Positions 29,014-29,202 of a stretch of DNA of 32,000 nucleotides are shown piece after piece. Source of the DNA: Candidatus Omnitrophota bacterium (GTDB lineage: Bacteria > Omnitrophota > Gorgyraeia > Zapsychrales > JANLHA01); contig OY759724.1 in the NCBI GenBank assembly GCA_963662715.1, forward strand, positions 240,001 to 272,000, written 5' to 3'. Positions within the stretch are counted from its first letter, which is position 1, and each line of letters begins with the position of its first letter. The notes under the pieces are model-generated. The model was given only the letters and a program-made list of their open reading frames with translations, made no database searches and was not told where the DNA came from. The position numbers were made by a program, and so were the translations under genes.

Positions 29014-29055
29014 CCCAAAAATAAGGGTGCCAGATATAAACATATCTGGCACCCT
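29014..29055 (-). terminator. strong rho-independent terminator after the 40-aa peptide gene
   Basis: Minus strand reads AGGGTGCCAGATAT-gttt-ATATCTGGCACCCT followed by TATTTTTGG. This is a perfect 14-bp stem, 24 nt after the stop codon. Confidence 0.8.
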
Positions 29056-29079
29056 GACCGGCCTGCTGCAAGGCTGCTG

Positions 29080-29202
29080 CTAGCACCCGCAGCCACAGCC
29101 GCAACCGGAGCAGACCGGACATCCGCAGGCAGCCGCATAAGCCGCGGCTGACCCTATAGCCAATACACAACCCATAAGGAATGTAACTATAATCGTTTTC
29201 AT
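29080..29202 (-). CDS. unannotated 40-aa exported Cys/Gly-rich peptide
   Basis: Hand translation: MKTIIVTFLMGCVLAIGSAAAYAAACGCPVCSGCGCGCGC*. CAGGAGG lies 6 nt before the ATG and a strong terminator follows. The track shows only an out-of-frame 89-aa ORF here. Confidence 0.55.
   Translation of the reverse strand: MKTIIVTFLMGCVLAIGSAAAYAAACGCPVCSGCGCGCGC

Follow-up and report, generated by a model that had tools for sequence, protein, structure and literature searches.

Does a 40-codon open reading frame (ORF) that closes with a run of Cys and Gly codons encode a real protein, and what could so short a peptide do for the cell? The ORF lies on the minus strand (29080..29202) of a 32,000-nucleotide stretch of DNA from a Candidatus Omnitrophota bacterium (assembly GCA_963662715.1, contig OY759724.1, positions 240,001 to 272,000), which is referred to here as the window. 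It translates to MKTIIVTFLMGCVLAIGSAAAYAAACGCPVCSGCGCGCGC, in exact agreement with the hand translation offered in an earlier sequence-only reading of this DNA. We find that the ORF is a gene under purifying selection, and that it is linked to a gene for a Cys-rich protein of 126 amino acids, here called the partner. By analogy with known Cys-rich metal-binding peptides, the gene could encode a Sec-exported mini-thionein for a soft metal, most likely Cu(I), that works with the Cys/His-rich partner; we put the probability of this interpretation at about 0.42. The claim concerns function (the peptide would act as metallothioneins do) and not membership of the metallothionein family.

Identification of the peptide gene

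The ORF is framed by signals for both translation and termination. A Shine-Dalgarno sequence, AGGAGG (29209..29214, minus strand), is located 6 nt 5´ of the ATG, and the reading frame ends at a TAG stop codon (29080..29082, minus strand). Where 1.7 sites of the form AGGAGG-N4-8-ATG would be expected, the window has five; each of them is on the minus strand, which is the strand of the long ORFs of the window, and most of them stand at long-ORF starts. This bias in strand and position makes the site a good gene-start marker in the source genome. An intrinsic terminator (29014..29055, minus strand) begins 24 nt past the stop codon and consists of a 14-bp stem with a 4-nt loop (29055..29024, including 7 G-C pairs) followed by the U-run TATTTTTGGG. 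It folds with an energy of -38.7 kcal/mol (z = -4.2), which not one of 200 shuffled sequences reaches. The ribosome-binding signal and the terminator described in the sequence-only reading are both confirmed by these data.

In the window the Cys-Gly pattern TGYGGNTGYGGNTGYGGNTGY has a single occurrence, and 100 shuffles contain none. Tandem Repeats Finder detects no DNA repeat over this stretch because the repeated Cys and Gly codons vary at their wobble positions, and Rfam contains nothing relevant. A word-indexed search of a collection of 5.8 billion proteins returned neither the exact peptide nor any lookalike. The same collection contains the partner, a PerR-like regulator and a peroxiredoxin from the same 3.36-Mb contig, which means that the peptide has truly not been called as a gene, as the earlier reading had proposed.

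A homologue was recovered only by an exhaustive, index-free search. The HMMER scan of 1.84 billion representative proteins yielded a sole homologue, the 42-aa metagenomic protein P0004 (MKHLIIGAITAVVLTIGATMVYAASCGCPVGSGCGCNCGCGC), which is 58% identical to the peptide from end to end (E = 1.6e-4). Some ten metagenomic contigs encode P0004 (JGI 3300035047, Logan SRR11801776); two of them, L001 and L002, were used for comparison. The peptide gene of the window and that of L001 differ at a proportion of synonymous sites (pS) of 0.70, which is essentially saturated, and at a proportion of nonsynonymous sites (pN) of 0.27. In the Cys-rich core (codons 25–40), pS rises to 0.75 while pN falls to 0.12, against a pN of 0.37 for the hydrophobic N-terminal part. 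The two peptides differ in length by exactly one in-frame GC dipeptide. Given the saturated pS, the low pN and the in-frame indel, the (GC)n stretch is not a free-running DNA repeat of the kind that the sequence-only reading had named as a danger to its claim, one that varies freely in frame among relatives. A full-length homologue and selection on the frame strongly support the view, already taken in that reading, that the 40-codon ORF is a real and discrete gene whose Cys core is selected.

A two-gene cassette with a Cys-rich partner

The partner gene (29260..29640, minus strand) encodes a protein with one N-terminal hydrophobic segment that ends in CCC, followed by CCP, the motif HxCxCQxHLK and a C-terminal DPPIxxxNCVYRC. 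In L001, an unannotated homologue of the partner (9568-9942; 32% identity, E = 3e-22) is found directly 5´ of the P0004 gene on the same strand, which is the co-occurrence that the sequence-only reading had proposed to check. This homologue was called as a protein of 130 aa and measures 124 aa from the ATG that aligns with the start codon in the window. The motifs CCCI..[VI]YA.P, CCP, HxCxCQxHLK and DPPIxxxNCVYRC are common to both loci; all nine Cys residues of the partner are conserved in L001 (P = 2e-5), as are H58 and H65. Neither Pfam, NCBIfam, PADLOC nor PHROG contains a family for the partner, and a search of the PDB with a partner profile returned only noise. An invariant CCC within the hydrophobic segment is unusual for a discarded signal peptide, and we therefore suspect that this segment is retained as an anchor.

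The promoter of the cassette is predicted by a promoter scan at 29647..29675 (minus strand), with a -35 element TTCAAA, a 17-nt spacer and a TG-extended -10 element TATACT. The extended -10 sequence TGnTATACT ends 6 nt before the partner ATG both in the window and in L001 (9553-9570, plus strand), and the remaining DNA upstream of the motif does not align between the two loci. The partner ATG has no Shine-Dalgarno sequence at either locus. With a -10 element this close to the start codon and no ribosome-binding site, the cassette transcript is probably leaderless for the partner gene.

Directly after the partner stop codon, a terminator scan and folding locate an intergenic hairpin (29232..29259, minus strand) with a 7-bp stem (TACCCCT/AGGGGTA) and a T-run. 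A hairpin with a U-run occupies the same place in L001 (9943-9975, plus strand), right after the partner stop codon, where the CCUCCU of its 5´ arm can also base-pair with the AGGAGG that precedes the peptide ATG. Possible functions of the hairpin are weak termination, a role in RNA stability or control of translation. The alternative pairing in L001 hints that translation of the peptide may be regulated, or that some transcription may end between the two genes. Before the peptide ATG, AGGAGGTT is conserved at a distance of 6 nt in the window and 5 nt in L001. Both loci have a strong terminator 22–24 nt past the peptide stop codon; in L001 the stem is 16 bp long (z = -5.7). The two terminator stems are unrelated in sequence, so it is the function that is conserved rather than the sequence.

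The gene order is thus identical at the two loci: partner, hairpin, AGGAGG, peptide gene, terminator. When all window ORFs of at least 60 aa were compared with L001 and L002 by tblastn, the partner and the peptide were the only ones in common. The pair is therefore a conserved functional unit, from which the flanking genes are excluded.

Predicted export signal and Cys-rich mature peptide

Codons 1–23 of the peptide gene (29134..29202, minus strand) encode a predicted Sec signal peptide, MKTIIVTFLMGCVLAIGSAAAYA, recognized by hydropathy and the -3/-1 heuristic, which outline n-, h- and c-regions. In both peptides the sole charged residue is Lys2, which is followed by a hydrophobic stretch, a helix-breaking Gly, small residues and, at residue 23, the motif [AV]-Y-A with an Ala behind it; the -3/-1 site reads A-Y-A in the window and V-Y-A in P0004. 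Such a region is typical of a signal peptidase I substrate, and cleavage would be expected after [AV]-Y-A. The cut after AYA put forward in the sequence-only reading agrees with this conservation, by sequence logic only. Its second proposal, a lipoprotein with LMGC as a weak lipobox, is ruled out by the comparison of the two peptides: the homologue has ITAV where the window has LMGC, so that a lipobox ([LVI][ASTVI][GAS]C) at the end of the signal peptide is not conserved.

Codons 24–40 (29083..29133, minus strand) would encode the mature peptide AACGCPVCSGCGCGCGC, which has 17 aa with 7 Cys (41%) and 5 Gly, no charged, aromatic or His residue, and a reduced mass of 1449.41 Da. The corresponding peptide of the homologue, ASCGCPVGSGCGCNCGCGC, would have 19 aa and also 7 Cys. 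The Cys residues are arranged as xxCxCxxCxxCxCxCxC in the window and as xxCxCxxxxxCxCxCxCxC in L001, so that each mature peptide has 7 Cys although one Cys position differs between them. The exported part had earlier been credited with 8 Cys; the actual number is 7, since the eighth, C12, falls within the hydrophobic signal segment and is a Val in the homologue.

Likeness to known metal-binding and modified peptides

No family in Pfam, NCBIfam (both at E ≤ 1), PADLOC or PHROG matches the peptide, in keeping with the earlier statement that no described family has this tail. One resemblance in design is to the fungal family-8 Cu-thioneins, which have 7 Cys in 26 aa with the pattern X2-CXC-X5-CXC-X3-CXC-X2-C-X3 (PMC4755600). 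Like the Cu-thioneins of Neurospora crassa and Agaricus bisporus, the predicted mature peptides are very small, contain exactly 7 Cys in CxC motifs, are rich in Gly and Ser, and lack aromatic and His residues. The L001 peptide follows X2-CXC-X5-CXC-X-CXC-X-C, the first half of which (X2-CXC-X5-CXC) is identical to the fungal pattern (PMC4755600), whereas in the window peptide a further Cys interrupts the X5 spacer and the C-terminal end is short of one CxC. In contrast to the fungal proteins, the two peptides are only 17–19 aa long and have shorter spacers after the second CxC; they are also bacterial, carry a predicted N-terminal export signal and are linked to a dedicated gene for a Cys-rich partner, while the fungal Cu-thioneins are cytosolic.

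A second likeness is to the engineered metal-binding 'CP' tag GCGCPCGCG, which was derived from a metallothionein metal-binding motif (PMC2229873, PMC9138774). The natural sequence CGCPVCSGCGC is locally near-identical to it, in that CGCP is followed by CGC in both. The tag differs from the peptide in that it is synthetic and used as a fusion, and it forms disulfides instead of binding metal when oxidised.

Bufferins (BufA) are Sec-exported peptides made by ribosomes and modified after translation (RiPPs) that chelate copper in the periplasm through Cys (PMC11626156). They share with the peptide a ribosomal origin and conserved Cys residues, their Sec signal would have a counterpart in its predicted export signal, and they have been proposed to sequester periplasmic metal. 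Bufferin precursors, unlike the 40-aa peptide, comprise 80–120 residues and belong to the DUF2282 or BUF_6/12Cys families (PMC11626156). They are also accompanied by an adjacent MNIO (DUF692) modifier and a DUF2063 partner, and usually by DoxX, none of which is present at the cassette. Neither MNIO (DUF692) nor DUF2063 was found among the Pfam-scanned window ORFs of at least 110 aa or the called genes of L001 and L002.

Among the bacterial copper storage proteins, Csp1 is exported. The Cys-thiolate-based sequestration of Cu(I) that we propose for the peptide is like that of Csp1 and Csp3 (PMC5171941). These proteins, in contrast to the peptide, are four-helix-bundle tetramers of more than 100 residues, and there is no similarity in sequence or size. 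The precursors of azole-containing RiPPs such as microcin B17 and the heterocycloanthracin type have cores dominated by Gly and Cys, as the peptide does. Unlike the peptide, they have non-Sec leaders and always occur beside a cyclodehydratase and dehydrogenase; no YcaO-type cyclodehydratase or dehydrogenase domain was detected at either locus. The NCBIfam models gave no match to a SCIFF/ranthipeptide precursor, and no radical SAM maturase adjoins the cassette.

Proposed function and alternative explanations

An exported mini-thionein is favoured by the Cys pattern shared with the fungal Cu-thioneins, the likeness to the metal-binding tag and the precedent of the bufferins. The window neighbourhood is in addition rich in genes for metal and redox functions (MntP, peroxiredoxin, PerR-like regulator, ferritin and an ArsR/permease/ArsC group), which we counted in favour of a role with metal. 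In the proposed mechanism, the cassette would be transcribed from the extended -10 promoter, and the first gene of the mRNA, that of the partner, would be read without a leader. A strong Shine-Dalgarno sequence of its own would start translation of the peptide, and the strong intrinsic terminator would stop transcription. Residues 1–23 would act as a Sec signal peptide that signal peptidase I cuts after [AV]-Y-A, which would release the 17-residue (window) or 19-residue (homologue) peptide to the periplasm or outside the cell. There, its reduced thiols may wrap a small cluster of a soft metal, for which Cu(I) is the most likely candidate by analogy with the 7-Cys fungal Cu-thioneins. The partner would be a membrane-anchored or periplasmic companion that gives metal to the peptide, takes metal from it or keeps it reduced. 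Such a peptide would be most useful where the envelope stays reducing.

Several points weigh against this proposal. Only two lineages are represented, so that every comparative statistic derives from a single pair. No metallothionein or bufferin model matches the peptide, and the likeness of the Cys pattern is one of resemblance, not homology. The metal and redox context is not conserved: in L001 the cassette is situated amid a transfer-messenger RNA (tmRNA) gene, a GIY-YIG nuclease gene and an IS481-like element. An oxidising envelope would be expected to turn the Cys residues into disulfides, as happens with the tag GCGCPCGCG. The hydrophobic segment has about 19 uncharged residues and is long enough to remain uncleaved as a membrane anchor. 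The AlphaFold2 model of the partner, built on a two-sequence alignment, is unusable (predicted local distance difference test score of 37), which makes the role of the partner a guess.

The length of the hydrophobic segment of the peptide leads to the alternative in which the 40-aa product stays whole as a single-pass membrane protein (N-terminus in, C-terminus out), with a 16-residue Cys/Gly tail on the outer face of the cytoplasmic membrane. Together with the anchored partner, it would form a small thiol complex for metal relay or uptake, a redox or persulfide carrier, or an accessory subunit. Residues 3–21 are uncharged with a Kyte-Doolittle(19) value above 2, the segment has the length of a transmembrane helix in both homologues, and the single N-terminal hydrophobic segment of the partner ends in the invariant CCC, which would be odd in a discarded signal peptide. 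An unrelated small ORF from Oscillospiraceae, MKCGCFDFINQDCLWWIILIVAVLAVLSDDGCGCDCGCPSNNGCGC, has the same design of a transmembrane helix and a Cys/Gly tail. We nevertheless consider retention in the membrane unlikely: both peptides have a classical c-region (the helix-breaking Gly, small residues, [AV]-Y-A and Ala), and the hydrophobic part shows the free evolution (pN 0.37) usual in signal peptides. The remaining alternative at the level of the gene itself, that no functional protein is made and the ORF is a chance frame, a leader for Cys-codon attenuation or a GC-rich DNA repeat, is scarcely credible. It could appeal to the 40 codons only, the low-complexity tail, the lack of annotation in its own genome and the extreme rarity of the family. 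Against this stand a full-length homologue with conserved start, Shine-Dalgarno sequence, stop position and terminator, a pN far below pS, and the in-frame indel; no Rfam family covers the region. A slippery DNA repeat is rejected in view of the absence of a tandem repeat, the synonymous nature of the variation and an indel that keeps the frame. An attenuator leader peptide is rejected as well, since the next gene downstream is convergent in the window (28027-28872, plus strand) and also in L001, which leaves nothing to attenuate.

If the exported Cys residues are chemically modified rather than free, the peptide would be the precursor of a RiPP, a pheromone or a bacteriocin, and its Cys residues would end up as azol(in)es, thioethers or defined disulfides. 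The conversion could be the work of enzymes from other loci, or of the partner as a novel type of maturation or immunity protein. Enzymes that form azoles typically act on cores rich in Gly and Cys, as in precursors of the microcin B17 and heterocycloanthracin types, and the Gly/Cys-rich core of the peptide would suit this chemistry. Bufferin precursors demonstrate that RiPPs may carry Sec signals (PMC11626156), and the window itself holds four B12-binding radical SAM genes (3583-10880). However, no YcaO, MNIO/DUF692, DUF2063, lanthipeptide or radical SAM gene adjoins the cassette at either locus, the radical SAM genes of the window are at least 18 kb away and absent from L001, and no SCIFF or other precursor model matches the peptide. 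The sole co-conserved gene is that of the partner, which has an export or anchor segment of its own and no detectable enzyme family. We regard modification as quite unlikely; the precursor for thio-modification suggested in the sequence-only reading is weakly disfavoured on the same grounds, namely the absence of a modifying enzyme beside the cassette and the distance of the radical SAM genes. A sacrificial redox buffer or an envelope carrier of sulfur (persulfide or polysulfide) that binds no metal would draw on the very high reducing capacity of 7 thiols in 17 residues and on the genes for a PerR-like regulator and a peroxiredoxin within 2.5 kb of the cassette. L001 does not share this peroxide-stress neighbourhood, the cassette has no linked thioredoxin or Dsb-type recycling partner, and the conserved CxC spacing suggests a chelation geometry over bulk thiol content, which makes such a role very unlikely.

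Implications of a possible exported mini-thionein

What would be new is a thionein-like Cys peptide that is at once exported, ultra-short and paired with a partner of no known family. If the proposal of an exported mini-thionein is correct, the mature product would be the smallest natural thionein-type peptide, below the 26-residue fungal Cu-thioneins that were once thought to be the shortest metallothioneins, and bacteria would have a metallothionein-like peptide that is exported. Among the papers listed by a phrase search of the open-access literature for periplasmic, secreted, extracellular or exported metallothioneins, there was no naturally exported bacterial one. The cassette would then represent a second and much simpler path to a Cys-based periplasmic metal buffer, beside the enzyme-modified bufferins, and metal-binding tags and biosorbents could take the 17-residue sequence as their minimal natural template. 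A bolder claim, which we hold to be rather doubtful, is that the pair is the first member of a class of mini-metallothioneins that bacteria export naturally, defined by a 7-Cys Sec peptide of 17–19 residues and an anchored partner of new fold on a mobile cassette. The impact is limited by a family found in only two lineages in the searches made here and by a function that is predicted. The locus also exposes a blind spot of annotation, in that a gene that is clearly selected is missing from the protein set of its own genome.

Distribution and possible mobility of the cassette

The family is extremely rare: among the matches listed by searches of proteins, viral contigs and plasmids and by two scans each of genomes and metagenomes, it was located only in the window and on L001-type contigs. 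The partner retrieved only itself and the L001-type protein from the word-indexed collection of 5.8 billion proteins. When genome contigs were scanned with the partner alignment, 162 sites matched the pattern and none was confirmed, and the DNA pattern for CGCPxxxGCGC gave at least 120 matches in genome contigs, those listed being all chance high-GC frames or unrelated ORFs. One candidate relative from a metagenome-assembled genome (MAG) of Desulfobacteraceae (L014) was rejected because its CGCPxxxGCGC match is in the wrong frame. Among metagenome contigs, the pattern CGCPVxxGCGC had nine matches, all by chance, and the pattern DPPIxxxNCVYRC had none, in a collection that evidently lacks even the L001 contig. 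Two patterns run against viral contigs revealed no relatives, and tblastn of both proteins against plasmids produced no match. The Oscillospiraceae ORF with a similar design (L068, 2090-2122, minus strand, in MAG SVJD01000020.1) was a chance find of a DNA pattern scan; its tail ends in GCGC before the stop codon, and it appears to be a design analogue.

The G+C content is about 47% at both the window and the L001 locus. In L001 the cassette is located approximately 500 bp downstream of a tmRNA gene (8649-9038), between the gene of a GIY-YIG nuclease (9210-9455) and that of an IS481-like transposase (10277-11428). Direct repeats of 67 nt (10176-10242 and 11490-11556) bracket the transposase gene, and the start of the first one falls within the 3´ arm of the peptide gene's terminator. 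The tmRNA has an unusually long tag, ADNYDAVAEAESILAEAQPVLA. Genes for tmRNA are common integration sites of genomic islands, and the setting at 8649-11556 resembles such an island. This setting, together with the wholly different flanks in the window, suggests that the pair has moved horizontally; the two-gene cassette is possibly mobile by horizontal transfer.

Genomic neighbourhood in the window

Directly upstream of the cassette are two ORFs (29761-30968, minus strand) with neither a family match in Pfam, NCBIfam, PADLOC or PHROGs nor a counterpart in L001. One encodes 279 aa, probably starting at an internal MSKKLILLAC..., with a signal anchor, and the other encodes a membrane protein of 115 aa.

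A dense run of metal and oxidative-stress genes extends from 14152 to 27787. It contains genes for an ArsR-family protein (14152-14505), a ferritin-like protein (15860-16366), the manganese exporter MntP (25661-26233), a peroxiredoxin (26470-27183) and the PerR-like regulator of the Fur family (27317-27787). The same interval holds genes for an IS200-type transposase (15266-15694), an S8 subtilase of 1262 aa (16600-20388), a MORN-repeat protein and PPK2. Another small candidate with a Cys cluster, the second in the window, is a 50-aa ORF without family match (13962-14114, minus strand), which sits between the ArsR-family gene and a gene for a PF03773 permease (13015-13971). The permease has sub-threshold similarity to SaoE and to SO_0444-type efflux transporters, and its gene is followed by that of a low-molecular-weight phosphatase/ArsC-like protein (12576-12998).

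The four B12-binding radical SAM genes are arranged in tandem on the minus strand (3583-4938, 5707-7140, 8175-9500 and 9537-10880) and are interleaved with ORFs of no assigned function. They are flanked by the genes of a GH3-like adenylating enzyme (1866-3644) and a MarR regulator (10952-11431), and the whole run (1866-11431, minus strand) may be a biosynthetic cluster. A link between the peptide and this cluster was rejected, as the cluster is distant and absent from L001. The product of the convergent gene next to the cassette (28027-28872, plus strand) has 281 aa and carries a PEP-CTERM sorting signal at its C-terminus (VPEPVSS...RRRFL), which implies that the host has an exosortase system.

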